Source: a virus
Virus genome (UHGV): UHGV-0466892
Length of the DNA stretch: 41,858 nt
Strand: one strand, 5' to 3'
Shown: positions 1,171 through 41,807 of the stretch, piece after piece
Layout of the letters: each line of letters starts with the position of its first letter
How positions within the stretch are numbered: position 1 is the first letter of the stretch
Program-made: the position numbers and the translations under genes
Notes under the pieces: model-generated
The model's database searches: none
Seen by the model: the letters and a program-made list of their open reading frames with translations, nothing else
What the model was told of the DNA's origin: nothing

Positions 1171-1832
1171 GCTCCAACATCGAACCCGCCGATGTATTCG
1201 TTATCCATATCAAACCCAAAGAATTTAGAGCCCTCGGATGGTGCTTCTACCGAAGGCGTTTCAACATCACCGGCCCATACGCCAGCTGCTTTAACGGTGA
1301 GATAGCCCTGTTTGATAGCGGCAATCAGTTCAAGAGACACATCAGAAATATCAGTCTCGGGGAATACCCAAACCGATATCGTCATGTCCTGGTTGTCGAC
1401 AATTTGCATCCTCAGGCCTGAGCCTTCAGTCGCAGCGTCAAGGATGGGAGGCAGAGAGTCGTTCCGACCGTCCCAGTTGTTGATAGCGATTTTCGCTTTC
1501 AGAATGATGCGGTACGTCTCATCGCTTAGCGTCGTATAGCCAGAATCAGGATCATATGGCCCTTGCCAGATGCCCTGGTCATACCCAAGCCCGTCAGTGT
1601 CCCAGCTGAAATAAACTCCGCTAATTGGCTGGCTGACTATGCGACTGCGTCCGATCCACAGACCGAGGATGTCGAGCTGTACACCGACAGCAGTATCAAT
1701 ATCGAAGGCTGTTATAAGCCCTGACATAGTGCTGGACACATCAATCAGCGGGCGGGTGCTCAGATCTATATGGTCAAAAAAGAGTGGCTTGGTAGCGTGG
1801 TAGTTAGTGATCAGTTCGGTGTATTTGCTCAT
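1152..1832 (-). CDS. baseplate/tail protein, P2 gpI-like
   Basis: 226-aa ORF between baseplate J-like gene and tail fiber, matching the P2 V-W-J-I-H-G gene order; family assignment by position and size only. Confidence 0.55.
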   Translation of the reverse strand: MSKYTELITNYHATKPLFFDHIDLSTRPLIDVSSTMSGLITAFDIDTAVGVQLDILGLWIGRSRIVSQPISGVYFSWDTDGLGYDQGIWQGPYDPDSGYTTLSDETYRIILKAKIAINNWDGRNDSLPPILDAATEGSGLRMQIVDNQDMTISVWVFPETDISDVSLELIAAIKQGYLTVKAAGVWAGDVETPSVEAPSEGSKFFGFDMDNEYIGGFDVGAWGTIL

Positions 1833-3028
1833 GAGGTCACCGTGATACTGATATTCGCGGTGCTACAGGACGCAGAAGCATCATAGGCAATATCAATGTT
1901 TGATGCCGATACGCTGCCAGACGACTTACCGATCAGCAGGTCGGTAATATCGTAATAGCGGGCATTCCCGCCGCTCACAACGCCGAGGTTTGCCGGGGAA
2001 TAAATACGGCTCAGCAGAACGTCGTCGCCAATTGTTAGGCCATTTATATAATCGGCAACAGCCTGTTTAATCTGCTCGCCGATTTGAGAGGTATAGCCGG
2101 TAAAAACTTTCAGGGTAATGGCTACGAAAATTGGCACATCGGTAGAGCGCGAAAAACTGATGACGTGTGGATTACCGTAAGTATCCGGCACCGTGACAGA
2201 AGTTTTACCGTAAGTTGCGGTTCCCTGCCCTTTACTCCCCCGGATTGTTTGGGCTATCTCGGTAACATCCCCTCCATCGACGATGGCGGAAATAGAGTGT
2301 GGCGGCAGCCCGTTGCTGTCGGTTGCCCCAGTGTCGTTCTCATATAGTTTGTGACGTGTCACGCCAGCAACATTAGCGATAGCACCGTCGACACCTTCAA
2401 ACGGTGTGATCGATGGTAGCGCGACGCTTTGCCCCTGCCGAATGCGCAGCTCTGCGTCGGTTTCGGCTGGTGAACCGACAGTAGCCGCAACTGGATTGGT
2501 TACCGACACCCAACCTCGGGTCGGGGTGTTGATAGTGGTAATAGTCCCGGCCAGCGCCGCAACCGAACCGCTATTCGCACATGTGGCCGTCACCAGCACA
2601 GTACCATCAACGCCGATCGCTACACTTGCGGGAAAATTCCAGATAATGCCGTTTTTATCCCGTGCGGAGCCATTCGTGATAGTCGTGCCTGCCGTACCGG
2701 TTAACAGAAGGTCAGCAGTAGAGTTTGTCGCTACTTTTCGCGTGATCCCGTTAATTTTCACATTGCTGCTAAGCGCTGCGGCCTGCGCTGTCGTCGGTGA
2801 AAAAGAGTTGTAGATCCCGATAGCGGTGTTGTTAGCGTCATGCACGGCAAGAGCCACCAGCGCGACCATCTGCCCGTCTTTGCTGTCTGGTTCGAGGTAG
2901 GCATCACTACCGTAAATCTGCCTGAAATAGCTGGTCAGTGTATCTAGGATTGTCTGGTAATCAGGCGCACTAATCCCCTGGGCGGTTACCGTTGCCGATA
3001 GCCCCAGCGTGTCGAGGTTCAAAGCCAT
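1829..3028 (-). CDS. baseplate J-like protein (P2 gpJ / Mu gp47 family)
   Basis: 399-aa ORF, overlapping stop/start with neighbours; position in baseplate module; sequence character of baseplate J proteins. Confidence 0.75.
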   Translation of the reverse strand: MALNLDTLGLSATVTAQGISAPDYQTILDTLTSYFRQIYGSDAYLEPDSKDGQMVALVALAVHDANNTAIGIYNSFSPTTAQAAALSSNVKINGITRKVATNSTADLLLTGTAGTTITNGSARDKNGIIWNFPASVAIGVDGTVLVTATCANSGSVAALAGTITTINTPTRGWVSVTNPVAATVGSPAETDAELRIRQGQSVALPSITPFEGVDGAIANVAGVTRHKLYENDTGATDSNGLPPHSISAIVDGGDVTEIAQTIRGSKGQGTATYGKTSVTVPDTYGNPHVISFSRSTDVPIFVAITLKVFTGYTSQIGEQIKQAVADYINGLTIGDDVLLSRIYSPANLGVVSGGNARYYDITDLLIGKSSGSVSASNIDIAYDASASCSTANISITVTS

Positions 3029-3382
3029 TTATGCCTCGCTTGTTACAGTCGTCTGGCCGTAGATTGTGTCAATGGAGGAAGTGAAGGTGACGCGACGGCT
3101 GGTGCCGTCATAATTGGTATCGAAGGAAAGAATCGACAGAACGCCCGGTGTATCCTGTATGCGTTCGCGTATAGCCAGGATGTAGACATCTGATCGCTGC
3201 TTCCCAAGCACTGACTGAACATACGGCGTGCCTTCCGTCAGATCGAGAAACCACTGACCGCGCCACAGCTCGAAACGGGTTTTTACGGCCTGGGCGACAC
3301 ATTCCGGACTGTCGATAAGGAAAGTATCGTCACCCTGGCCGAAAGTGTAATCGCCTTCAGTATCTTCGCGACGGTATCGCAT
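3029..3382 (-). CDS. baseplate wedge protein (gpW / gp25-like)
   Basis: 117-aa ORF between spike and baseplate J genes; size and position typical of gpW/gp25. Confidence 0.55.
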   Translation of the reverse strand: MRYRREDTEGDYTFGQGDDTFLIDSPECVAQAVKTRFELWRGQWFLDLTEGTPYVQSVLGKQRSDVYILAIRERIQDTPGVLSILSFDTNYDGTSRRVTFTSSIDTIYGQTTVTSEA

Positions 3383-4122: not shown

Positions 4123-4137
4123 AAAACCCCCATAAAA

Positions 4138-4157
4138 AAACCAGCCGAAGCTGGTTT
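4138..4157 (-). terminator. rho-independent terminator hairpin (minus strand) directly upstream of the spike gene
   Basis: Stem aaaccagc / gctggttt with 4-nt loop; on the minus strand it is followed by a T-run (complement of 4134-4137). Confidence 0.5.
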
Positions 4158-4344
4158 GGTATCAATTATCTCTTAGTAACTAAGCTACATCAGTGTGAAG
4201 TAAGGCTTTTCCGCTGCAATGGCACACATTCACAAGGTGTATTAGGATATGTTTGCAACAAGTAAGCATTGAAAATCAATTTCAGCCATGAAGCCGCCAT
4301 AGAGTGGACCTGCACCATCGCATTATTGACTACAGGAGTAACAA

Positions 4345-4635
4345 ATGGGATTTAGATTTCGTAAAAGAATCCGGATTGCGCCCGGACTCGCGATCAACAT
4401 TAGTAAAAGCGGAGTAAGCACTTCAATTGGTGGTAAAGGTTCCACCATTAACATCGGGAAAAAAGGCGTAAAGATGACAAATGGCCTTCCCGGCACGGGG
4501 CTGTCGCATACCACTAACCTTTACTCTCCCGGGAAATCGACAGAAAAAAAACAACTTACTCATAAGCAAAAAATAATTAGAAACATCCTGTTCGTAATTA
4601 TTGTGTTTATTATAATTAAAGCTCAATATTTTTGA
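4345..4635 (+). CDS. DUF4236-like small protein with C-terminal transmembrane helix (cargo gene)
   Basis: ATG at 4345 with AGGAG 7 nt upstream; N-terminus MGFRFRKRIRIAPGLAINISKSGVSTSIGGKG matches the DUF4236 signature as recalled; hydrophobic C-terminus ILFVIIVFIII; opposite strand to the tail operon; followed by a terminator. Confidence 0.65.
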   Translation: MGFRFRKRIRIAPGLAINISKSGVSTSIGGKGSTINIGKKGVKMTNGLPGTGLSHTTNLYSPGKSTEKKQLTHKQKIIRNILFVIIVFIIIKAQYF

Positions 4636-4640
4636 CGCAT

Positions 4641-4670
4641 GCCCGCCTATCTGGCGGGCTATTTTACTTT
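4641..4670 (+). terminator. rho-independent terminator after the DUF4236 gene
   Basis: gcccgcc tatct ggcgggc stem-loop followed by tattttactttt. Confidence 0.65.
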
Positions 4671-5003
4671 TCGGCAGTCGTATGTTGCATACTGACGCGG
4701 CGAATCCATGCTGGCTTGCAACCACTGTGCGTTGAGAATGGCTTTGCCGTTTCGATTGATGTACTCAAGACCAACCCATCTTCCAGGCTGATCGGTAGCC
4801 ATACGCCAATCCATCTTGATATTGTTATAATCGCCTTTGTTTTTCAGGAAGGTGATTTTTTGCATTTCTGGCTTTGCGCCATTGATTCTGGCTAAGCCAT
4901 CATCTGCCCAATGGATTTTAAAATCACCACATTGCTGATCCGCAAAAGCGGGTGCTGATATAAGCACCGCGAACACGGTAACAGTGCAAAGTAAATGTCT
5001 CAC
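4659..5003 (-). CDS. small secreted protein with cleavable signal peptide (cargo gene)
   Basis: GTG start at 5003 with GAGGTGG Shine-Dalgarno; N-terminus MRHLLCTVTVFAVLISAPAFA|DQQ is a classic Sec signal; two Cys in the mature part; unrelated to tail proteins. Confidence 0.55.
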   Translation of the reverse strand: MRHLLCTVTVFAVLISAPAFADQQCGDFKIHWADDGLARINGAKPEMQKITFLKNKGDYNNIKMDWRMATDQPGRWVGLEYINRNGKAILNAQWLQASMDSPRQYATYDCRKVK

Positions 5004-5015
5004 GGCCCCACCTCA

Positions 5016-6080
5016 CTAATTCGTCGTCCCTTGCATTGCTTTCGGGCTATAAAGATCACGAGCGCCACGCGCAAAACACATCAAATCCATGTACCACGCC
5101 TGACCTCTGGTGTCGCCAGTATAGTCGATAGCTTTGACGATATAAACGCCATCCGTCGCAATGCTGGCAGCCTGTGACGTCGTGCCGGTCAGCACACGGT
5201 TGCCGTTCTCTTCTGTTTCGGTGATACGCCCGGGCGACTGTGCTATTTCGCTATTGCCGAGCGTGGCGCGGTACACCGAAGCCTGATCGAGCTGGATAAG
5301 ACCATTAATACGGATGTTTGGGTTTATCAGGCACCGCACGTTTACTCCGCCGCCCATCGTTTGTTGCGGCATACCGATCAGGCCAGTATTGGCATTCAAC
5401 ACAATGGCTTCGTGAATATATTTATCCTCCGGCACCATCTGGACCTGACCATCCACCAGTTGCCATGTCGCTTTGCACTGCGCAGCAATATTATCCATCA
5501 CGTTGCGGCTGGATGAGTAAATCGCGCGGCCACGAGGAAACACGGTATCAGGAAAATCGCCGGTAATGCCCTGTGTCACGCCGAACGCGTTGAAATCCTG
5601 CATCGTCGCCCGGTGCAGATCCGCAACGGTATAGCCAGCGGCAAGCGTGGTGATGGTAGTCGCGTAGAGGAACGCTTCGTGGTTACTGATGGCCTGAATC
5701 AGCACCCAGGAATCGGTGATGTTGTCCTTCCCGGTGACGGTGAAGCGAATATCACCGTCAAATATCAGGCCGTAGTTCTGACCGTTCACCTGCCCTACCT
5801 GGTCTGGTGAAATCTCCCGGGCGACACCAACCTGGCTCGCATCAACATCCGGCGCAATACCGTCATACCCGGCAATGATGCGAATTTTTGCAAACTCCTG
5901 CCCCAGTATCTTGTTCGTGGTATCGGTCGAAAGGTTGTAAATTTTCACGTTTGCCACGCGCGGCCAGCGTGTATCTGCCCACTCGATCTGGAACGTGACC
6001 TTAAAATCAGACAGGGAAATACCCTGCCCGTTCTGGTCCAACAGCTGCAACTCAAAATGGCGCATCCAGTTAAGAGACAT
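5016..6080 (-). CDS. baseplate hub / tail protein (gpD / gp27-like)
   Basis: 354-aa ORF between tape measure-proximal genes and the spike; assignment by position and size. Confidence 0.5.
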   Translation of the reverse strand: MSLNWMRHFELQLLDQNGQGISLSDFKVTFQIEWADTRWPRVANVKIYNLSTDTTNKILGQEFAKIRIIAGYDGIAPDVDASQVGVAREISPDQVGQVNGQNYGLIFDGDIRFTVTGKDNITDSWVLIQAISNHEAFLYATTITTLAAGYTVADLHRATMQDFNAFGVTQGITGDFPDTVFPRGRAIYSSSRNVMDNIAAQCKATWQLVDGQVQMVPEDKYIHEAIVLNANTGLIGMPQQTMGGGVNVRCLINPNIRINGLIQLDQASVYRATLGNSEIAQSPGRITETEENGNRVLTGTTSQAASIATDGVYIVKAIDYTGDTRGQAWYMDLMCFARGARDLYSPKAMQGTTN

Positions 6081-6082
6081 TT

Positions 6083-6388
6083 CTACTCCTGCACGAAAAT
6101 GAGGTGGCTGTATGTGCCGAGGTTGGTTTTGGTGGGCTCGTCTGGTGCGCCCTTATCGGTCGCCACCACCAGCGCACCATCAATGCCAAGCTGTGGAAAT
6201 TGTCGTAAAAGGTTCACGCCGGTCAGTAGAGGTACGCCAGAGAGAAGCGCGGCACCGCCGCTATCCATCACGTCCATAATCCAACCAGCCGCATCGCGCC
6301 AGATGATCCTGAGCGTATACGTAGTATTGCCCAGCAAAACGCGGAACTGCTGATTGTCAGGAGAAAGCGGTATTTCGTTAAACTGCAT
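6083..6388 (-). CDS. tail/baseplate assembly protein (hypothetical)
   Basis: 101-aa ORF tightly packed in the tail operon. Confidence 0.45.
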   Translation of the reverse strand: MQFNEIPLSPDNQQFRVLLGNTTYTLRIIWRDAAGWIMDVMDSGGAALLSGVPLLTGVNLLRQFPQLGIDGALVVATDKGAPDEPTKTNLGTYSHLIFVQE

Positions 6389-6389
6389 A

Positions 6390-6992
6390 TCATCCCCCGA
6401 ATGCTGATGTAACGCTTCCGCCCAGCTGGCTCAGCAAAGATTCGTTTGGCGGTGTAGTGGATTTCGTCCCGGAATTTTGCACCGCCGATGTGCTGACGCC
6501 ATCCTGCATATCTGATTTATCAGCAACGCTAACGCTCTGCGTTTGCGACATGATCACTTCACGCAGGGTAAGCGTGCAGTTCAGCACGTTCTCGCTGGTT
6601 TTGTCCGTTGTCACCTCGATGGCTCTCACCAGCATATTGCTGTACACCCGCTTCCCGGTCACCACATCGAACGGCACCCGGGAGGACTGGAGATCCAGCA
6701 GTTGCTGATAGGTCTCTTTCGGGCTCAGTCCGGCGCTGAGGCCGATTGAAGATGTATCAATGAAGTCCAGCAACGAACCGCCCCCAGCGAAGCCGCATTC
6801 CATTGTGACTTCGCTGGGGCGCTTATACGCATGATCGGCGATGAAACCCGAGGCGCTATTCGTTGTTGGCTTCTCCACCGGGTGCTCAGTAATTTCGAGC
6901 GCATCAGAATGCTTTTCGGAAACGACCACGCTGGGGATCAGCAGGCCAATTCGCCGTGATTGCTGGCGAAAAATCGCTGATAAAATATCCAT
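6390..6992 (-). CDS. tail protein downstream of tape measure (hypothetical)
   Basis: 200-aa ORF; its start overlaps the tape measure stop at 6992. Confidence 0.45.
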   Translation of the reverse strand: MDILSAIFRQQSRRIGLLIPSVVVSEKHSDALEITEHPVEKPTTNSASGFIADHAYKRPSEVTMECGFAGGGSLLDFIDTSSIGLSAGLSPKETYQQLLDLQSSRVPFDVVTGKRVYSNMLVRAIEVTTDKTSENVLNCTLTLREVIMSQTQSVSVADKSDMQDGVSTSAVQNSGTKSTTPPNESLLSQLGGSVTSAFGG

Positions 6993-9259
6993 TATCTCGG
7001 TCCTGCGGGGAGTTGCTGGGTTAACTGTGAATTCACACCCTTTTGACGGTCAACAGTCAAACGGGCAGCTTCGCGAGGATCGGAAACGCCGTGGATGTTA
7101 ATGTTCGTTTCCTGCTGAATCACCGGGGCGCTGGTGGGCATATTGCTCATTACTTTCGGAATGTAATTGCGCGTTTCCTGCGGCATTAGCCCCATTCCAT
7201 AACGTTGAACGTTCCCGATTCCCCAGTTATATGATGCAAGTGCTTTGCTAAGGTCTCCGCCGTTCTGCCGCAATAGCTGGCTAAGGTACTTAGCGGCTGC
7301 CTGAGCTGACTTTTCCGGGTCGAACACATCGTTACCACGCAGGCCCATGTCTCGCGCCGTGCCATCCATGAACTGGAACAGCCCCTTTGCACCCGCGCCG
7401 GACATGGCGAACTGGTTACCACCTGACTCGGTTATCGCCACACTTTTCAATAGACCAGCTGGAAGTTGATAAAGCGACTCAAGTTTATTGAACATTGGCC
7501 CCATCCAGTCGAGCAATACTTTGCCCTGGGCTGTGGCCTGTGGACGTTTGACTGATTGCGCAAACTGGGAGGGGTCACCCGATATATTTGGAGAGATTTC
7601 AGCAGCTCCAGCCGGGGAGAAAAATAAATTACCGATTTTGGCAATCCCGTCTGAGATTTTTTCAAGATAACCATTAGCAGCCTGCTGACGGTTTTTTATT
7701 TCATCTCTTTCATGCGGGGCAATTTCATTACTACGAACATGCTGTTCCGCCCCGGGAATGTCAGGCTGAACATTATCGCCATAAACGACGCCATTGCTTT
7801 GCGCCTGACGAATAATCTTACCTGGGCCACCATGCAGCCAATCCATCCATGCGGGCCATTCTCTTACCTCGCTAACATCTTTTCGCCCAAGGTCGGTTTT
7901 GATGCCAACCGTAGCAAGAGCATCACCAATGTTCCTTTTGGTATAGTCCAAAGATGATTTAGCACTGGCTTTTATGTTTTCACGATCTGAAACCAGGTAA
8001 CCAGCATACGCTCCCCATAATTTAAGCCATGGAGGTATCGGAAGACCGGATATTTTTGCGAATGCTCCCAATACTTTTGTTACCCATACCCCAGCGATGA
8101 AAGTAGCCAAAATTTCCAGCGAGTTCTGCCATCCACCAACAGAATCTTTCAGCCCCAGAAGCTTATCGCGCAGCCAGAGAATTGCCTTTTTCGCCTTTTC
8201 TATTGCAGGCTCCCACTTGGACCAGTCAATCAGGCTTTTACCGCCTTCTTTCCACGTCTGATAATCGTCATAGAGTAATCCGATCGCCAGAATCAGCGTG
8301 GTGATAATTCCAATCGGGGATTTCAGGAACGCAGAATTAAGCAGACGCCATGCGACAAGTAGAGCACCGAATATTTTCAGCAGATTTTTACTGCCATCGT
8401 CAAGACGCTTCCACCAGTCAATGACAGAGCCAGCGCCCTGTATGAGCCGCCACGCCATTCGCGTGAAGGCGTTCGCAAGCCAGATCACGCCTTTAATAAC
8501 TCTGGTCAGCGTCTCTTCAATCTTCGGGAAGTTGTCGAGGATGCGCCGCCGCAGGCTGTCCAGCGAACCAGCAAGACCACCAGCGAGGTTTGAGCCGATC
8601 TTGTCCCGCATAATGCCGAACAGCGACGTAAGCCCGCGCATGGACGTCATGAATTTATTGGACTGCACAGCCGCCTTATCAGCGTTGAACCCAGTCTTTT
8701 GCAGCATAGACTGGTAATCGGCGGTAAAGCCATTCATGCCGCGCCGCATCGCCATCAGCGTGTTTTCATCGATGCCAAGCATCTGCGCGTATTGCTTCGC
8801 GCGGTAATACGGCATGTTGTTGAGCTTTTGCCCAACGCCAGTAAAGATGGCCGCAGTATCACGCATCTTTCCGCTGGCATCTCGGGTCTGGACACCAAGA
8901 CGGTTCAGGAAGCCTTCCGCCCCCGGATTGCTACGCATGAAACCGGCCAGCCCTTCGAGGGAGGACATGGCCGACTCGGCGCTGGCACCGGTTTGCGACG
9001 CGGCATAGCCCAGCGCTTTGATGCCCTGGACGCTGGCCCCCGTCCGTTGGGATGCCCAGTAAATTTTATCCAGACCATTCGCGATCTGGGTGGTAAATCC
9101 GACAATGCTCAGCGCTGCGCCTTCCACCACCGCGCCGACCTTCAGAACGTTTGCGGTAACGCCTTTCAGCACGGCTTCAAACTTATTAGCGCCAGCCTGA
9201 TCGATATCGAATCCCAGCGAAACAAGGAAGTCTTTAATCGTATCTGCGTTACCGCTCAT
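6992..9259 (-). CDS. tail tape measure protein with C-terminal lytic transglycosylase domain
   Basis: 755-aa ORF after the chaperone gene; membrane-like central region; C-terminal motifs ITESGGN, GLFQFMDGTARDMG, ASYNWG typical of SLT-type lytic transglycosylases. Confidence 0.85.
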   Translation of the reverse strand: MSGNADTIKDFLVSLGFDIDQAGANKFEAVLKGVTANVLKVGAVVEGAALSIVGFTTQIANGLDKIYWASQRTGASVQGIKALGYAASQTGASAESAMSSLEGLAGFMRSNPGAEGFLNRLGVQTRDASGKMRDTAAIFTGVGQKLNNMPYYRAKQYAQMLGIDENTLMAMRRGMNGFTADYQSMLQKTGFNADKAAVQSNKFMTSMRGLTSLFGIMRDKIGSNLAGGLAGSLDSLRRRILDNFPKIEETLTRVIKGVIWLANAFTRMAWRLIQGAGSVIDWWKRLDDGSKNLLKIFGALLVAWRLLNSAFLKSPIGIITTLILAIGLLYDDYQTWKEGGKSLIDWSKWEPAIEKAKKAILWLRDKLLGLKDSVGGWQNSLEILATFIAGVWVTKVLGAFAKISGLPIPPWLKLWGAYAGYLVSDRENIKASAKSSLDYTKRNIGDALATVGIKTDLGRKDVSEVREWPAWMDWLHGGPGKIIRQAQSNGVVYGDNVQPDIPGAEQHVRSNEIAPHERDEIKNRQQAANGYLEKISDGIAKIGNLFFSPAGAAEISPNISGDPSQFAQSVKRPQATAQGKVLLDWMGPMFNKLESLYQLPAGLLKSVAITESGGNQFAMSGAGAKGLFQFMDGTARDMGLRGNDVFDPEKSAQAAAKYLSQLLRQNGGDLSKALASYNWGIGNVQRYGMGLMPQETRNYIPKVMSNMPTSAPVIQQETNINIHGVSDPREAARLTVDRQKGVNSQLTQQLPAGPR

Positions 9260-24478: not shown

Positions 24479-25261
24479 TTACCGCGTTATCTGCTTAAGC
24501 TGTTTTTCGGCCCAGGACTCTTCGATATCAAATTTCGTGATCAGCAGGTCGTAGAATGGCTTAACAGACTTTTTCCAGGTGTCCAGGCTAATGGCGTCAG
24601 TAATCTGGCATACAGCAGCATAGGCTTCAGTCGACGGAAGTCGTTCATACCCACGCCCTCCGCAGCGCTTACAGTCAGCCAGAACAGGAACGCCCTGTTT
24701 CTCAGTAAGAGCCTGGTTCACTGCCTTGCCGCGCCCATGGCAATCACTGCAAGAAGCACTAACCACACCAGAGCCATTACACTTTTTGCATAGCACTTTG
24801 ATGGATTCTTTGACCTTCACCATCCCGGACACGGTCATTTTCCCTTCTGGCTTACGGAATTTATTGGTAAACACGTCAGCCTCAATGAAGCCCTGACCGT
24901 CACAACAATCGCACTGCTTCACGCTGGCAGCGCTGCGGGAATAGTCCTCAAAAGCGAAGGTGGCCAACTGGTGCATCACCTGAGGTTTAACCGCGGCACC
25001 GAGCTTACGCAGTGCGGCAACCTTGTCGCATTTTGTCATCGCGTACTCAGCCAGCAGACCGATCGCCCGATCCCGGTCGTTATTGCTTATGCCCATCTTG
25101 CCGAGGAAGGCGCTGTAACCCATTGCGGCGCGTTCCTGCGTCATGCCCATGGCAGCCATTATGTCGGTACCGGTCAGTGAATCGGAGGCGGTAGCGCGCG
25201 GAGAATCGCTAATCAGTGTGGATTTAGCGAAGTGGTATTTCACTGTGTTTTCAAGGTTCAT
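24479..25261 (-). CDS. Q: late-gene antitermination protein Q
   Basis: 260 aa; Cys-rich zinc-binding region (CDCCDGQG ... CKKCNGSG ... CSDCHGRG ... CKRCGGRG); located between RusA and the lysis genes as in lambdoid phages. Confidence 0.8.
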   Translation of the reverse strand: MNLENTVKYHFAKSTLISDSPRATASDSLTGTDIMAAMGMTQERAAMGYSAFLGKMGISNNDRDRAIGLLAEYAMTKCDKVAALRKLGAAVKPQVMHQLATFAFEDYSRSAASVKQCDCCDGQGFIEADVFTNKFRKPEGKMTVSGMVKVKESIKVLCKKCNGSGVVSASCSDCHGRGKAVNQALTEKQGVPVLADCKRCGGRGYERLPSTEAYAAVCQITDAISLDTWKKSVKPFYDLLITKFDIEESWAEKQLKQITR

Positions 25262-33982: not shown

Positions 33983-34120
33983 CGAAAACCCCGCGCAAGG
34001 CGGGATTCACGTCCGGTGCCACCGACCAAAGTTACACCGGAATTTATACCAAACCAAAAAACATCCAATGGGCGCTATCTCTGGCCCGGGGATTCTAACA
34101 CTCAAAAAAGAGGATCTCAC

Positions 34121-36955
34121 ATGGAATTTTTCCATCTGATAAAAGCCAGTCAGAAGTCTGGCAAGAAAGATGCAGTGATTTGGTTCACTGCGAAAAGTGT
34201 AGCGCGCGCCAATCTCCAACTCGATGTGGCACTGGAAGAAGCCGGAATTGAAGAAACTGGCCGCGGTAAAGATTATGCCAAACCAATCCGCACCGATTTC
34301 CCGGTATATGACGACCTGCCGGAAGAAGGCGCAGTGGATTACACCTGGTGCAAACGCTACGAACTGCAGAACGATGACCGCACCTGGCTGCCAAAAGTCA
34401 CAGCTGAAAACTCTGACGAGAAAACGGCTCAGACCGTTGATAGTCACATAACTACTGAGTCAACGCTGCCAGAAACCGCTGGCATCACGCTGGACGAACA
34501 CGACGACGACTCAACCCTCTACCCGGTAGTGCAGATGCCGTTTCGTAAGCAACTGCTTTCCCAGTTCACCGCCGACGAACTGCGCCACCACGTAACCCGC
34601 GAAGAGTACGAAGCTATCGGCGCGCTGGAGATGGACACTGATAACAGTTACGTCCAGAACTTGCTGTTAGCTGCTGAGAACTGCCCGGAAGTGAAGGGTT
34701 ACGACACCAAAGACCTGTGGCGCTACACCGATGCCATTCGCAAAGTGTTCAGCCAGGACAAGCGTCACGAACTCGCGCTGGTACTCCGTTTCACCAGAAT
34801 GTGGGCGGCGACTGATTACATTGACCGTGGCATCCTGGCGCGTGAATGGGCTGCCGGTAATCACATCAGTAGTGTTCAGCGCACTGACGCAGGTACCAAT
34901 GCCGATGGTGGATATGTCACCGACCGCGGCGAAGGTGCGCATCACACGCTGGACACACTGGATCTGGAGATCGCCTGTGCCCTGCTGCCGATGGATTTCA
35001 ACCACCTTGAGATCCCGGGCAGCATTCACCGTCGCGCCAAAGAAATCGTGGCGAAAAAAGAAGAGCCCTGGAAATCATGGAGCGCCCTTCTGCGTAACCA
35101 GCCTGGCGTTCTGTCGGTAAACCGTGCGGCCATTTTCAACCTGGTACGGATCGCACCGGAAAACATTCATCGTACGCCGGCGGCCCATCTGGAGTTCGTT
35201 AACCAGACCATGACCGCTGAGTTTAACGCCGCAACTGAACTGATGCCCCTGCGCGCGTCCGCGGTTCAGACGCAAGTAGAGGTTGAGGAACCAACAGCTC
35301 AGCCGCAGGTCGCGAACCTCGGCGGTGGCATGTTCTCCATCAATGGCCTGTTGAGTGGAAATACTAACCCGGTCATCAATATTCCCTCAAATGAAGCAGA
35401 AAAACCGGAAACCGTAGTGGAGACCACCAGCGATGTGCAGATGGAAGCGACTCAGCCAGAGAAAGACAAAACTGTTGATACGGTACCACCAGGCGAAAGC
35501 GCTGATGCAACTGATCCGCAAACAGATACCCTGAACCCGGCTGAGGTGCTCTCCGCCGCGGCGCCGGAGCTGGCGAACGCCACTACGCAGGAATTGACCA
35601 CCGAAGCATCAGAGGAGAAAGCGAGCGCGCCGGAAGAGCAACCTTCACAACCGGTCCCGGAATACCCGGCGTACTTCGAACCGGGCCGCTATGAAGGCGT
35701 GCCGAATGACGTTTATCACGCGGCGAACGGGATCAGTTCCACCCAGGTGAAGGATGCCAGGGTCAGCCTGATGTACTTCAACGCGCGCCACGTCGCCAAA
35801 ACTATCCCGCGGGCCCCTTCCAAGGTGCTGGACATGGGTAATCTGGTTCACGCCCTGGCGCTGCAGCCTGAAAACCTTGAGGCAGAGTTCAGCGTGGAGC
35901 CGGAGATCCCGGAAGATGCTTTTACTACCACCGCCACCCTGCGCGAGTTCATCGATTCGCACAACGCCACCCTGCCGGCACTGCTGAGCACTGACGATAT
36001 CAAAGCGCTGCTTGAAGAGCACAACGCCACCCTGCCCGCGCAGCTGCCGCTGGGCGCCAGCCTGGAGGAAACGGCCCAGAGCTATATGGCTTTGCCGGCA
36101 GAGTACCAGCGCATCGAGCCAGACCAGAAGCAGACCGCAGCAGCTATGAAAGCCTGCATCAAAGAGTACAACGCCACCCTGCCCGCGCCGGTTAAAACCA
36201 GCGGCAGCCGCGATGCGCTGCTTGAACAGCTGGCAATCATCAACCCTGACCTGGTGGAGCAGGAAGCCCAGAAGCCGGCACCGCTTAAGGTGTCCGGCAG
36301 CAAAGCGGAAATGATCCAAGCGATTAAGTCGGTTAAACCCGATGCCGTATTCGCCGACGAGCTGCTGGACGCCTGGCGAGAAAATCCGGGCGACAAGATT
36401 CTGGTGACGCGCCAGCAGCTGGTGACCGCCCAGGCCATCCAGTCGGCCCTGCTGGCACACCCGACCGCAGGCATGCTGCTAACCCACCCGAGCCGCGCCG
36501 TTGAGGTGAGCTACTTTGGCTTTGACGAGGAGACGGGACTGGAAGTTCGTGTGCGCCCTGACCTTGAGATCGACCTAGACGGCGTGCGTATCGGTGCTGA
36601 CCTGAAAACCATCAGCATGTGGAATGTTAAGCAGGAAAGCCTGCGCGCCAGGCTACACCGGGAAATTATTGAACGTGATTATCACCTGAGCGCGGCTATG
36701 TACTGCGAAACCGCAGCGCTGGATCAGTTCTTCTGGATTTTCGTCAACAAAGACGAGAACTACCACTGGATCGCCATCATCGAGGCATCCGCTGAACTAC
36801 TGGAGCTGGGTATGCTCGAGTACCGCAAAGCGATGCGCAATATCGCAACCGGATTCGACACAGGTGAATGGCCAGCGCCAATCACTGCTGACTACACCGA
36901 CGAACTGAACGACTTCGACCTGCGCCGCCTTGAAGCGCTGCGTACTCAGGCATAA
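34121..36955 (+). CDS. RecE-like 5'-3' exonuclease (exodeoxyribonuclease VIII-like, C-terminal PD-(D/E)xK domain)
   Basis: Start set at ATG 34121 (AGAGGA Shine-Dalgarno); ~944 aa; acidic low-complexity middle with repeats; C-terminal VRPDLEIDLDGVRIGADLKT fits PD-(D/E)xK; immediately followed by an annealing-protein gene. Confidence 0.55.
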   Translation: MEFFHLIKASQKSGKKDAVIWFTAKSVARANLQLDVALEEAGIEETGRGKDYAKPIRTDFPVYDDLPEEGAVDYTWCKRYELQNDDRTWLPKVTAENSDEKTAQTVDSHITTESTLPETAGITLDEHDDDSTLYPVVQMPFRKQLLSQFTADELRHHVTREEYEAIGALEMDTDNSYVQNLLLAAENCPEVKGYDTKDLWRYTDAIRKVFSQDKRHELALVLRFTRMWAATDYIDRGILAREWAAGNHISSVQRTDAGTNADGGYVTDRGEGAHHTLDTLDLEIACALLPMDFNHLEIPGSIHRRAKEIVAKKEEPWKSWSALLRNQPGVLSVNRAAIFNLVRIAPENIHRTPAAHLEFVNQTMTAEFNAATELMPLRASAVQTQVEVEEPTAQPQVANLGGGMFSINGLLSGNTNPVINIPSNEAEKPETVVETTSDVQMEATQPEKDKTVDTVPPGESADATDPQTDTLNPAEVLSAAAPELANATTQELTTEASEEKASAPEEQPSQPVPEYPAYFEPGRYEGVPNDVYHAANGISSTQVKDARVSLMYFNARHVAKTIPRAPSKVLDMGNLVHALALQPENLEAEFSVEPEIPEDAFTTTATLREFIDSHNATLPALLSTDDIKALLEEHNATLPAQLPLGASLEETAQSYMALPAEYQRIEPDQKQTAAAMKACIKEYNATLPAPVKTSGSRDALLEQLAIINPDLVEQEAQKPAPLKVSGSKAEMIQAIKSVKPDAVFADELLDAWRENPGDKILVTRQQLVTAQAIQSALLAHPTAGMLLTHPSRAVEVSYFGFDEETGLEVRVRPDLEIDLDGVRIGADLKTISMWNVKQESLRARLHREIIERDYHLSAAMYCETAALDQFFWIFVNKDENYHWIAIIEASAELLELGMLEYRKAMRNIATGFDTGEWPAPITADYTDELNDFDLRRLEALRTQA

Positions 36956-36960
36956 GGGGA

Positions 36961-38079
36961 ATGATGATGGAAAACACGAATATCGTAACCGCTGAACAGC
37001 AGACTCCAAACACGATCTCAGCCAGCAATGCCATTTTCAACGTGCAGGCTTTAACCCAGCTTCAGTCTGTCGCCGGGTTGATGGCACAGGCAGCCGTAAC
37101 GGTGCCTGAGCACCTCCGCGGCAATCCGGCAGACTGCATGGCCATCATCATGCAGGCGATGCAGTGGGGTATGAACCCTTACGCCGTGGCGCAAAAGACG
37201 CACCTGGTTAACGGTGTCCTGGGATACGAAGCGCAACTGGTTAATGCGGTGATCTCCAGCTCAAACGCCATCGTTGGCCGCTTTCACTATGAGTACGAGG
37301 GCGACTGGTCGAAATGTGCCAGCAGCCGCGAGATAACCGTTAAAAAGCCTGCGAAAGGTGGCGGGACGTACGACAAGAAAGAAATGGTACGCGGTTGGGA
37401 AAGTGCTGATGAACAAGGACTGTCGGTACGGGTAGGTGCCGTTATTCGCGGTGAAAGTGATATCACCTGGGGAGAGCCTGTTTTCCTCTCCAGCGTAATC
37501 ACACGTAATTCTCCACTTTGGGTATCAAACCCGAAACAGCAGATCGCTTATCTGGCACTCAAATACTGGGCGCGCCTGTATTGCCCTGCAGTTGTTCTTG
37601 GTGTGTACACCCCTGATGAGATTGAACAGCGCACAGAAAAAGAGATCAACCCAACGCCGCAACGCGTTAGCCTGGCTGATATCTCAGGTGACACCGTCAC
37701 AACCACGCAAAGCGCACAGGAATCGTCGGTAAATGTCGGCTCTCTTGCCGATGATTTCCGCGAACGCATCGAATCTGCTCAGGACGTGGATAGCGCCAAA
37801 TCGCTGCGTGCCGACATTGAAACGGCGAAAGCTACGCTGGGATCCGCACTATTCACCGAGCTGAAAAACAAAGCCGTAAAGCGTTATTACCTAGTGGATG
37901 CACGCAACAAGGTTGAGGAGGCTATTAAATCCCTGCCCCAGCCCGACGAGCCGCATGCAGCCGAACGGTTCGCTGAAGCCGAGCGCATGCTTGCATCTTC
38001 AAAGCGTCACTTAGGCGATGAACTGCACGATCAATTCAGCATCACCCTGGCGGATATGAAACCGGAATACGTGGCCTGA
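36961..38079 (+). CDS. single-strand annealing recombinase, RecT/Red-beta superfamily
   Basis: 372 aa; segment ADCMAIIMQAMQWGMNPYAV ... GVLGYEAQL resembles the conserved core of Red-beta/RecT proteins. Confidence 0.7.
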   Translation: MMMENTNIVTAEQQTPNTISASNAIFNVQALTQLQSVAGLMAQAAVTVPEHLRGNPADCMAIIMQAMQWGMNPYAVAQKTHLVNGVLGYEAQLVNAVISSSNAIVGRFHYEYEGDWSKCASSREITVKKPAKGGGTYDKKEMVRGWESADEQGLSVRVGAVIRGESDITWGEPVFLSSVITRNSPLWVSNPKQQIAYLALKYWARLYCPAVVLGVYTPDEIEQRTEKEINPTPQRVSLADISGDTVTTTQSAQESSVNVGSLADDFRERIESAQDVDSAKSLRADIETAKATLGSALFTELKNKAVKRYYLVDARNKVEEAIKSLPQPDEPHAAERFAEAERMLASSKRHLGDELHDQFSITLADMKPEYVA

Positions 38080-40112: not shown

Positions 40113-40661
40113 TCAGCTAGCTGGAAACTTTTTATACAGAGTTGAGAGCCCTACTCCATACGTTTTTGATACGCTTTGTCGTGATTCACCGGTTGCCATC
40201 CGCTCCCCCATTTCCCGCCATTGCTCATCCGTGAACTTAGGCCTGCGACCACCAACTCGCCCTTTTGCCCTGGCTACGGCCAGCCCTGCTAAGGTACGTT
40301 CGCTATTAAGATCAGATTCATATTGTGCTGCGGAAAGGATGTTACGAAAGTTATAGCGGCCGCTGGCTGTTTTGAGATCCACGCCATCGGTAATACTGCG
40401 GAAGTTGATACCCTTTTCCTGTAACTGCTGGAACATCAACAGCGCATGCAGAACGTTGCGGCCTATCCTGTCCAGCTTCCAGACCACCAGTTCATCCCCC
40501 GGCTGCATAGTGGCGATCAGCCGTTTTAGAACCGGCCGATTCGATTTCCTCCCGCTGGCATGCTCTTCAAAAATTTTCTCACAACCCGCTGACTTGAGCG
40601 CCGTTAGTTGCAATTCAGTGTCCTGGTGGTTTGTTGATACTCGGGCATAACCGTAAATCAT
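40113..40661 (-). CDS. serine recombinase, DNA invertase of the Hin/Gin/Cin/Pin family
   Basis: Start set at MIYGYARVSTNHQDTELQ (catalytic Ser-containing N-terminus); C-terminal HTH; GGAGA Shine-Dalgarno; lies adjacent to an invertible fiber segment. Confidence 0.9.
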   Translation of the reverse strand: MIYGYARVSTNHQDTELQLTALKSAGCEKIFEEHASGRKSNRPVLKRLIATMQPGDELVVWKLDRIGRNVLHALLMFQQLQEKGINFRSITDGVDLKTASGRYNFRNILSAAQYESDLNSERTLAGLAVARAKGRVGGRRPKFTDEQWREMGERMATGESRQSVSKTYGVGLSTLYKKFPAS

Positions 40662-40665
40662 GGGA

Positions 40666-40692
40666 TTTCTCCTGTTATGAAAACAGGAGAAA
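40666..40692. repeat. perfect 11-bp inverted repeat tttctcctgtt / aacaggagaaa spanning the invertase ribosome-binding site
   Basis: Arms at 40666-40676 and 40682-40692 with a 5-nt spacer; the left arm supplies the invertase Shine-Dalgarno on the minus strand. Confidence 0.5.
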
Positions 40693-40713
40693 CGGCGAAG
40701 CATCACCAGATTT

Positions 40714-41205
40714 TTGATGGTTATAAAAAAGGTTGGTTTGGGAGAAGGCTCAGCGTTACCCGTTGGTGTACCTGTTCCGTGGCCTTCAGCCACTCCTCCA
40801 ACAGGCTGGCTGAAATGCAATGGTGCGCCTTTTTCTGCCGCACAATATCCGAAGTTGGCACTGGCTTATCCTAGTCTGGCATTGCCGAATTTACGCGGTG
40901 AGTTCATCCGTGGCTGGGATGACGGGCGCGGTATTGACGCGGGGCGCGAAATTCTGTCTGCTCAGGGTGACGCCATTCGAAATATCGTTGGACACATCTC
41001 ATGCGTGCGTCGTGGGAGTGGATTTTCAGACCTTAAAGATGGCGCGTTTAGATACGATAGCAACTGGTCTACAAAAATTAAAGGGGATGGGGTCGAAGAC
41101 GACTGGGGGAGCGTAGTCTCATTTGATGCCAGTCGCGTAGTTCCAACTGCACCAGAAAACCGTCCACGCAGTATCGCATTTAACTTCATCGTGAGGGCCG
41201 CATAA
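40714..41205 (+). CDS. alternative tail fiber C-terminal (receptor-binding) cassette, start-less; expressed only after inversion
   Basis: Frame open from 40681 with no proper ATG or Shine-Dalgarno; KKVGLGEGSALPVGVPVPWPSATPPTGWLKCNGAPFSAAQYP...LRGEFIRGWDDGRGID is a typical variable fiber C-terminus. Confidence 0.7.
   Translation: MMVIKKVGLGEGSALPVGVPVPWPSATPPTGWLKCNGAPFSAAQYPKLALAYPSLALPNLRGEFIRGWDDGRGIDAGREILSAQGDAIRNIVGHISCVRRGSGFSDLKDGAFRYDSNWSTKIKGDGVEDDWGSVVSFDASRVVPTAPENRPRSIAFNFIVRAA
40721..40746. other. gix/hix-like inversion crossover site (partner of 709-734)
   Basis: TTATAAAAAAGG TT GGTTTGGGAGAA; the right half and TT core match the reverse complement of the site inside the fiber gene (TTCTCACATACC TT GGTTTGGGAACG). 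Confidence 0.6.
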
Positions 41206-41807
41206 TGACACAGGCAAAATTAAACAGTGAATTTATTGCCACAGTAGCGGGTGATATTACCGTCTATAACTATGACAACACGACACGGGAATACATTTCA
41301 TCATCAACAGAATATCTTGCCGTTGGCGTCGGTATCCCGGCATGTTCTTGTTTAGATGCGCCAGTTACACATAAAGCTGGTTATGCAATCTGCCGTTCTG
41401 CAGATTTTAACTCATGGGAATATGTGCCAGACCATCGCGGTGAAATCATCTATAGCACCGAAACAGGAGAATCGAAAGAAATCACAGCTCTGGGTGATTA
41501 CCCTGAAAATACAACCACTATCGCCCCGTTAACGCCATATGATAAATGGGATGGTGAGAAATGGGTGACGGATACTGAGGCACAGCATAGCGCCGCAGTA
41601 GAAGCGGCAGAAGCACAGCGCCAGTCACTGATTGATGCAGCAATGGCTTCCATTAGTCTGATTCAGCTGAAATTACAGGCCGGACGTAAACTTACGCAGG
41701 CAGAAACAACCAGGCTTAACGCTGTGCTGGATTACATTGACGCGGTGACGGCAACAGATACCAGCACCGCGCCGGATGTCATCTGGCCTGAACTGCCGGA
41801 GGTGTAG
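41205..41807 (+). CDS. tail fiber assembly protein (alternative Tfa)
   Basis: 200 aa; C-terminus ...TDTSTAPDVIWPELPEV is a typical Tfa ending; ATGA-coupled to the fiber cassette. Confidence 0.85.
   Translation: MTQAKLNSEFIATVAGDITVYNYDNTTREYISSSTEYLAVGVGIPACSCLDAPVTHKAGYAICRSADFNSWEYVPDHRGEIIYSTETGESKEITALGDYPENTTTIAPLTPYDKWDGEKWVTDTEAQHSAAVEAAEAQRQSLIDAAMASISLIQLKLQAGRKLTQAETTRLNAVLDYIDAVTATDTSTAPDVIWPELPEV

Follow-up and report, generated by a model that had tools for sequence, protein, structure and literature searches.

A swappable accessory slot at an ancestral putative terminator between the baseplate hub and spike genes of a lambda-regulated temperate myovirus

Introduction

Morons in the late operons of lambdoid phages and the defence hotspots of prophages are both known kinds of accessory locus. 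Here we describe a site that draws on the two, found in the viral genome UHGV-0466892, all 41,858 nt of which are referred to below as the window. The site is the junction between the baseplate hub gene and the membrane-piercing spike gene of a temperate myovirus with lambda-like regulation. It holds sp114, a gene for a predicted exported protein; an oppositely oriented gene of the Pfam family DUF4236, whose product has a predicted inner-membrane anchor; and a putative intrinsic terminator directly ahead of the spike gene. As a kind of locus, the hub–spike interval is an accessory/defence hotspot of a type already familiar. What is new, as far as the searchable literature shows, is the hub–spike site in E217/Pam3-type baseplate modules of Enterobacterales prophages, the structurally constrained intra-operon terminator that marks it, and the recurrent tie between the uncharacterised DUF4236 family and tape-measure or tail-tip genes. 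No description of this hub–spike hotspot was found in that literature, in which the sp114 family is likewise previously undescribed and the one mention of DUF4236 that we found is unrelated.

Prophage hotspots include the tin/old and Z/fun loci of P2 and the hotspot of P4, and prophage defence hotspots are reportedly the subject of Rousset et al. 2022. As at the P2 and P4 loci, unrelated defence and accessory genes are swapped here at a fixed site among close relatives; unlike them, the phages concerned are lambdoid-regulated myoviruses with an E217/Pam3-type baseplate, and the slot lies inside the baseplate operon, bounded by an ancestral putative intra-operon terminator and a fixed gene for a secreted protein. 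Proteins that block receptors or entry and are encoded beside tail genes – T5 Llp, lambdoid Cor, T4 Spackle – offer a second comparison. Like these, sp114 is small, predicted to be exported and disulfide-bearing, and encoded among tail-tip genes; unlike Llp and Cor it has no lipobox and is not a lipoprotein, and unlike Spackle, which is helical, it is a predicted beta-barrel. The lambda proteins Lom, an outer-membrane barrel of ~200 aa, and Bor, a lipoprotein, are examples of lysogenic conversion. They too are envelope proteins produced from the late region and insulated by terminators, but they differ from the predicted products here: sp114 is a soluble barrel of ~90 aa and the DUF4236 protein is anchored in the inner membrane.

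The closest described system is the HK97 gp15 moron, with which Juhala et al. 2000 and Cumby et al. 2012 are said to have dealt. Gene 15 was the first moron to be described; it lies between the tail chaperone and the tape-measure gene and encodes a small inner-membrane protein that imposes a tail-dependent block on DNA entry (PMC3594210). The parallels with the DUF4236 gene are threefold: a small AT-rich gene with its own terminator interrupts a packed, Q-antiterminated tail operon, the product is predicted to be a small inner-membrane protein, and DUF4236 homologues in other siphoviruses occupy the identical chaperone/tape-measure position. Unlike gp15, the DUF4236 protein combines a beta-meander with a C-terminal anchor and bears no sequence relationship to it – no homology to HK97 gp15 or YebO was found, and a Pfam scan at E<=0.01 gave DUF4236 alone – and the site is the hub–spike junction of a myovirus baseplate, with the gene inverted. 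By this comparison, the resemblance appears to be limited to position and membrane anchoring.

Results and Discussion

A swappable slot between the hub and spike genes

The minus-strand tail genes of the window overlap or lie 0–12 nt apart, with a sole exception: 536 nt separate the stop codon of sp114 (4659) from the ATG of the spike gene (4122). The guanine-plus-cytosine (GC) content of positions 4123-5010 is 0.434; the window as a whole has 0.524 and the tail operon around the interval 0.531, and just 1.8% of 888-nt windows are lower; gene by gene, DUF4236 (0.39) and sp114 (0.455) differ in base composition from their flanks (0.53). An earlier note on this DNA had drawn attention to this AT-rich break in a tightly packed minus-strand operon, and both the break and the features reported within it (the DUF4236 gene, its AGGAG, the hairpins and the signal-peptide gene) are present at the positions it gave. 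The note went on to read the junction as a single horizontally acquired insert of two genes with its own terminators. Comparison with relatives leads us to a different, layered picture.

Our survey covered 80 viral contigs recovered via sp114, 80 genome loci recovered via the spike, and annotated records of E. coli and of phages. In the surveyed loci, tblastn was used to place hub, sp114, DUF4236 and spike. In tail modules with distant hubs (34–51% hub identity) hub and spike are adjacent, 2–125 nt apart. In the hub clade of the window (>=53% hub identity) an sp114 homologue, at 28–99% identity, almost always stands directly after the hub, and in six loci it is alone in the hub–spike gap. The distance from the sp114 stop to the spike start is hypervariable, ranging from 3 nt to 2.8 kb, and among ~100 loci it is filled by ~45 or more mutually unrelated sequence types, all of them AT-rich (GC 0.34–0.46). 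The limits of the slot are given by pairwise blastn: against relatives that carry other cargo, homology breaks off at 4140-4145, where T-run and hairpin meet, and resumes at 4662-4674, at the sp114 stop. At the left edge, a search revealed neither a conserved motif nor a repeat; cargo starts right at the sp114 stop.

The DUF4236 cassette fills this slot in 18 of ~100 sp114-bearing loci, the remainder having other sequences or an empty slot. It is therefore present in some genomes and absent from the same position in close relatives, as a moron should be, and the gene also carries a putative terminator of its own in addition to the one on the operon strand (Table 1); sp114 shows the presence–absence pattern only against more distant modules. 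The interval is AT-rich accessory DNA, as the earlier note proposed, and in relatives unrelated sequences take the place of its DUF4236-bearing segment. The single two-gene insert must be given up, because sp114 is syntenic directly after the hub in nearly all hub-clade relatives, sometimes without other cargo. Conserved synteny in related tail modules, which the note had itself set against an origin as cargo, thus largely holds for sp114, whereas the DUF4236 segment is swapped.

The other occupants of the slot include several recognisable defence and immunity genes. Among them are Phd/Doc (RefSeq annotation); a T5orf172 protein matching PD-Lambda-1 of PADLOC (E=1e-82; L095, Dryocola); PDC-S42 (E=2e-36; L156, Pantoea ananatis); a superinfection immunity protein of the T4 Imm type (PF14373, Imm_superinfect, E=2e-14; L098/L124, Photorhabdus); a P22 antirepressor with Arc (L016, IMG/VR); a bacterial PH-domain membrane protein; and a weakly HEPN-like two-gene pair, encoding proteins of 258 aa and (HEPN-like) 123 aa, in five loci. 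Several further two-gene sets among the fillings are uncharacterised. Many open reading frames (ORFs) in the slot are small and encode secreted, lipoprotein or membrane products; a crude hydropathy rule assigns a signal peptide or lipobox, an anchor or a membrane segment to about half of the putative cargo proteins. Many operon-strand cargo ORFs begin 1–20 nt past the sp114 stop, and such cargo is probably co-transcribed with sp114.

The terminator ahead of the spike gene

A critical issue is the origin of the hairpin that abuts the spike gene, whose run of seven T ends 11 nt before the spike ATG. We counted hairpins of >=5 bp followed by >=5 T, ~18 nt ahead of the spike ATG, in loci with a gap of >=28 nt: hairpin and T-run are present in 116/124 loci, including loci without sp114 and loci without cargo. 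The stem varies in a compensatory manner (CCCGC/GCGGG, CCAGC/GCTGG, GCCGC/GCGGC, CCTGC/GCAGG, CCCACC/GGTGGG). In a 38-sequence alignment (A3) 98.5% of cells pair and double changes occur in 4/7 pairs; 0/500 shuffles match the observed values, and slid registers collapse. The stem variant also tracks the type of cargo, with CCAGC/GCTGG in all 18 DUF4236 slots. Four loci of a separate lineage (L102, L117, L135, L155) have no hairpin, and there sp114 is coupled to the spike across a gap of 3–4 nt.

With its GC-rich hairpin, U-run and conserved structure, the element has the sequence hallmarks of an intrinsic terminator. Because it is also found in relatives whose hub and spike are adjacent, it is ancestral and not owned by the cargo. 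The view that it came as the insert's own terminator is contradicted by these adjacent arrangements, and an origin with the insert is rejected on the ground that cargo-free relatives carry the hairpin as well. The T-run and the spike start are too close together to leave space for a promoter, so the spike must be transcribed through the terminator; such passage is plausible because the window encodes a Q-type antiterminator, with which late transcription can pass a terminator inside the operon.

A match to the small RNA isrK (Rfam RF01394) at 4135-4217 on the minus strand was rejected: it scores 23.4 bits against a threshold of 50 and is driven by the terminator hairpin. A short divergent transcript may end at the terminator.

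sp114 is a fixed neighbour of the hub

The start codon of sp114 lies 12 nt past the hub stop and is preceded, 5 nt upstream, by GAGGTG. Its N-terminus, MRHLLCTVTVFAVLISAPAFA/D (the slash marks the cleavage site), is a typical Sec signal peptide, and the RefSeq annotation of both sp114 and the DUF4236 gene is identical in E. coli TOK-001. The protein matches PHROG 3443, a family with no assigned function, over its full length (residues 2-114 to profile positions 2-114 of 115). All 86 homologues come from Enterobacterales and all are annotated as hypothetical. Within them the signal peptide varies in sequence and keeps its shape and the AxA/D site, C25 and C110 are invariant, and even distant members (28-44% identity) retain the signal peptide together with both cysteines. 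The prediction that this gene encodes an exported protein with a clean signal peptide is thereby upheld. There is no lipobox cysteine at +1; the cleavage region reads AFA/DQQC, with the cysteine at +4, a pattern kept in homologues. An AlphaFold2 (AF2) model gives a ~90-aa eight-stranded up-and-down beta-barrel, with a predicted local distance difference test (pLDDT) score of ~90 over the mature part.

The family is tiny. A profile search of 1.84 billion representatives yielded 56 clusters at 50% identity, all but a few much alike in size (three are longer, 164-292 aa), and no informative remote relative. Foldseek against BFVD gave nothing below E=0.05, PADLOC 2.0 solely a chance-level match to Cas11a (E=0.045), and NCBIfam scans of sp114 and the DUF4236 protein nothing useful; no sequence or specific fold match tying sp114 to known exclusion proteins was found.

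Every sp114 member whose context we examined sits in this tail module, and in some relatives the gene is translationally coupled to that of the spike. Because it follows the hub in nearly all relatives of the hub clade, sp114 is a fixed accessory gene there. In four loci that have cargo and lack sp114 (L123, L162, L106, L167) the hub is followed first by a gene for some other lipoprotein or secreted protein; because a gene of this kind replaces the missing sp114, selection for an exported product directly after the hub is suggested.

The tight siting of sp114 behind the hub raises the question of whether it, and possibly DUF4236, serves the phage's own lytic cycle, through receptor masking or debris protection of the kind provided by T5 Llp, or in tail assembly or injection. 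Conservation of sp114 across the clade, its coupling to the spike without a terminator in some relatives, and a DUF4236 homologue that lies on the tail strand beside the tape-measure gene of phage phiCD146 are in keeping with such a role. A cleavable signal peptide, however, is hard to square with virions assembled in the cytoplasm, related tail modules work with hub and spike adjacent, and DUF4236 is here antisense to the operon; we accord a lytic role very little probability.

Residues 589-689 of the window's tape-measure protein form a lytic transglycosylase (SLT) domain, which a protein of the sp114 type could conceivably target in the periplasm.

The DUF4236 gene, its product and its genomic contexts

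Assignment to DUF4236 is secure in score (73.6 bits against a gathering cutoff of 27, profile positions 1-54 of 55). The AGGAG (4334-4338) stands 6 nt ahead of the ATG, and the gene is followed by a hairpin with a T-rich tail (Table 1), so that the plus-strand gene with its own terminator described in the earlier note is indeed there. This hairpin overlaps the stop codon of sp114, and the template of its U-tract consists of the conserved C-terminal K-V-K-stop codons of sp114; the convergent DUF4236 and sp114 genes therefore share their 3' ends.

A perfect palindrome, CTTAGT-A-ACTAAG (4173-4185), lies upstream of DUF4236. Some cassettes that differ in nothing else (L012, L050) lack half of it through an 11-nt indel. 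The palindrome may be an operator or the scar of a recombination event.

The protein consists of a conserved N-terminal domain (residues 1-56), a variable polar linker and a C-terminal hydrophobic helix (73-95), an architecture conserved in 47 homologues; in the AF2 model residues 7-60 form a six-strand beta-meander. These features predict a C-tail-anchored inner-membrane protein with a cytoplasmic beta-meander. An N-in topology is supported by homologues in which the membrane helix is followed by a periplasmic-type SH3_3 domain, and by one with a cytoplasmic FtsK_gamma fusion. Of the proposal that the product is membrane-anchored and acts on the host envelope, the anchoring is retained, by virtue of the predicted helix; action of the DUF4236 domain on the envelope exterior is not, given its predicted place on the cytoplasmic side.

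How long the gene has occupied the slot can be gauged from its relatives. Serratia (L101), Hafnia (P0094) and Klebsiella (P0101, P0114 and the phages RCIP0034 and GZ7) have homologues with 52-68% identity in this slot, and without exception these are inverted. Because these homologues have diverged to an extent similar to hub and spike, yet E. coli prophages carry DUF4236 cassettes 96-100% identical beside sp114 alleles just 64-75% identical, the gene is both an old resident of the slot and actively exchanged. Simply recent horizontal cargo, as originally envisaged, does not fit homologues of such divergence in the same slot and orientation in three other genera.

Elsewhere, DUF4236 genes occur between the tape-measure gene and gpM of a lambda-like prophage of Leclercia, between gpK and gpI/J in Pseudomonas syringae, in the tail chaperone/tape-measure interval of another siphovirus, near a 1643-aa protein, taken as tape-measure by size only, in an Acinetobacter phage, and in the repressor–integrase interval of Faecalibacterium phage Epona. 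For the SH3 fusions of Vibrio and Photobacterium, as for one more homologue, the context is non-phage or unclear. The overall distribution points to a recurrent link between DUF4236 and tape-measure or tail-tip genes in several tail types.

What, then, might such a protein do? Our best guess, by analogy with HK97 gp15, is superinfection exclusion. One alternative is that DUF4236 is an abortive-infection effector, which would oligomerise and damage the membrane or arrest growth when a foreign phage infects. The slot of relatives holds bona fide defence genes (PD-Lambda-1, PDC-S42, Phd/Doc and the HEPN-like pair), a beta-meander could self-assemble, and the inverted orientation would silence the gene during lytic growth of the resident phage. 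The product is nonetheless a single 96-aa protein with no recognisable sensor and no match in PADLOC 2.0, and recurrent siting by tape-measure and tail-tip genes suits a function linked to entry better; abortive infection is on these grounds unlikely. Another is that one or both proteins are factors of lysogenic conversion, concerned with envelope stress, colonisation or serum resistance, with no part in conflict between phages. This would accord with the large share of envelope-directed proteins among slot cargo (about half) and with the existence of small DUF4236 proteins outside prophages, such as the chromosomally placed SH3 fusions of Vibrio and Photobacterium. Set against it are the small size of the sp114 family, every examined member of which lies in this tail module, and the repeated tie of DUF4236 to tail modules, and we regard it as quite improbable.

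Expression and a proposed mechanism

A scan for sigma-70-like consensus sequences identified a promoter candidate upstream of sp114, inside the 3' end of the hub gene (Table 1). Nearly all relatives that bear cargo, down to a hub identity of 53%, share it at this position. In 28 gap-free representatives the third bases of codons inside the hexamers are invariant: the Thr codon, four-fold degenerate, is ACT in 27/27 and the Tyr codon TAT in 28/28. In four loci that lack swappable cargo (two of them with no cargo at all, two with just sp114) the hexamer Thr is encoded by ACC or ACG. This is a hint, and a hint only, that in the lysogen the candidate could serve as promoter for sp114 and for any cargo on the operon strand.

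We put forward the following account, in whose parts our confidence differs. The junction is the hub–spike site in the Q-antiterminated late operon of a lambdoid-regulated temperate myovirus. In line with the classical logic of morons, Q-modified polymerase would read through the terminator during lytic growth; in the lysogen, transcripts from the accessory region would stop at it, leaving the spike and downstream wedge genes insulated. The older layer is sp114, inserted between the hub stop and the terminator and by now fixed in the hub clade, its predicted product a Sec-exported periplasmic beta-barrel. The younger layer is the slot, exchanged among related prophages, probably by recombination in its flanks – the 3' end of sp114 on one side, the T-run and 5' end of the spike on the other – and filled in the window by an inverted DUF4236 moron with its own terminator. 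DUF4236 would block the DNA-entry step at the inner membrane, as HK97 gp15 does, and sp114 would act at a periplasmic step. Owing to the convergent layout, late transcription and sp114 read-through would be antisense to DUF4236, and the moron would be turned down in lytic growth.

The analysis itself shows the anatomy of the locus, its pattern of conservation, the swapping of cargo, covariation in the terminator stem, the presence of Q, and the folds and topology as predictions; prophage expression, read-through by Q and exclusion are inferred. That the locus is a layered moron hotspot built on an ancestral terminator we hold with high confidence. Our confidence that sp114 and DUF4236 are expressed from the prophage is moderate, and that they exclude incoming phage, DUF4236 at inner-membrane entry and sp114 in the periplasm, is low to moderate, being drawn by analogy. 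The account as a whole, in which the hotspot is joined to prophage-expressed interference with incoming phages, seems to us somewhat probable. 

Several observations weigh against it. The promoter candidate of sp114 lies in coding sequence, where its conservation is confounded with coding constraint and phylogeny and is suggestive only; a scan of the plus strand upstream of DUF4236 found no sigma-70 consensus; and sp114, embedded as it is in the late operon, may be mainly a late product rather than a product of the lysogen. In addition, the homologue in C. difficile phage phiCD146, in the chaperone/tape-measure interval and on the tail-gene strand, is without the anchor, which leaves room for a tail-related role.

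A bolder version of prophage-expressed exclusion can be stated: that tail-anchored DUF4236 proteins are a widespread and as yet unrecognised prophage family, blocking DNA entry from the cytoplasmic face of the inner membrane and linked to tape-measure and tail-tip genes in unrelated tail architectures, that sp114 is the matching periplasmic factor, and that the terminator made the site a landing pad for cargo. This version we consider doubtful. Should the account hold, it would provide a first function for DUF4236, a domain family without a literature, and, in a common prophage group of Enterobacterales, a new and easily recognised accessory/defence hotspot that could be mined for new defence or exclusion genes. 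It would also show how a pre-existing intra-operon terminator, together with Q antitermination, predisposes an essential structural operon to cargo. Genes of this sort affect the susceptibility of lysogens to therapeutic phages.

The tail operon and other features of the window

A prophage of E. coli TOK-001 matches the region studied at 100% identity, and Citrobacter phage Omnitron is ~91% identical across the hub–spike region. Genes for regulation and replication in the window comprise the Q antiterminator, replication protein O, RusA, an integrase and a RecE/RecT module; the late operon is on the minus strand. The features of the junction and its neighbours are collected in Table 1.

Table 1. 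Features of the hub–spike junction and of the late operon (positions are those of the window).
Feature	Position	Strand	Remarks
Tape-measure gene with SLT domain	6992-9259	-	
Dit-like gene	6390-6992	-	
Plug	6083-6388	-	
Baseplate hub gene, 354 aa	5016..6080	-	left flank of junction; phrog_196 'baseplate hub' E=2e-83; weak E217_GP41 match
Sigma-70-like promoter candidate TTTATA-17-TATACT	5118..5146	-	inside hub 3' end, ~115 nt upstream of sp114; consensus scan
sp114, 114 aa, GTG start	4659..5003	-	phrog_3443 E=7e-46
Terminator-like hairpin GCCCGCC-TATCT-GGCGGGC then TATTTTACTT	4641..4659	+	predicted to end DUF4236 transcript
DUF4236 gene, 96 aa	4345..4635	+	Pfam PF14020 E=1.8e-20; antisense to late operon
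Non-coding region upstream of DUF4236	4158..4344	+	includes AGGAG
Swappable cassette	4141..4661	.	pairwise blastn breakpoints versus relatives with other cargo
Putative intra-operon intrinsic terminator	4134..4157	-	stem 4141-4154, extendable to 4138-4157; T7 run 4134-4140
Spike ribosome-binding site GGGGG	4127-4131	-	immediately after terminator T-run
Membrane-piercing spike gene, 246 aa	3382..4122	-	right flank of junction; Gp138-type N domain Pfam PF18352 E=1e-41; Apex motif E=3.5e-8
Sheath-initiator/W-like gene	3029-3382	-	
Baseplate J	1829-3028	-	
Q-type antiterminator gene	24479..25261	-	upstream of late operon; Pfam PF03589 Antiterm E=2e-45

The spike and W-like genes overlap in the window. 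In two relatives an extra unannotated gap of ~230-280 nt separates them, at 1554-1783 of L004 (E. coli LR-33) and at 4082-4361 of L170 (a Klebsiella-type contig), and this gap may be a second, smaller insertion site.

In the plus-strand interval 34016-38079, a gene for a 979-aa RecE-like exonuclease VIII that has a PDDEXK domain precedes one for a 372-aa RecT. Together they make up a recombination module of the Rac type, which could promote the swapping of cassettes at the hotspot.

Tail-fibre assembly (Caudo_TAP) and tail-fibre genes are found in opposite orientations at both ends of the window (41205-41807, plus; 23-385, plus; 364-1170, minus). A serine invertase (40113-40820, minus; Resolvase and HTH_7, E=8e-39) adjoins the tail-fibre genes, and the whole looks like an invertible host-range segment of the Gin/Cin/Pin type.

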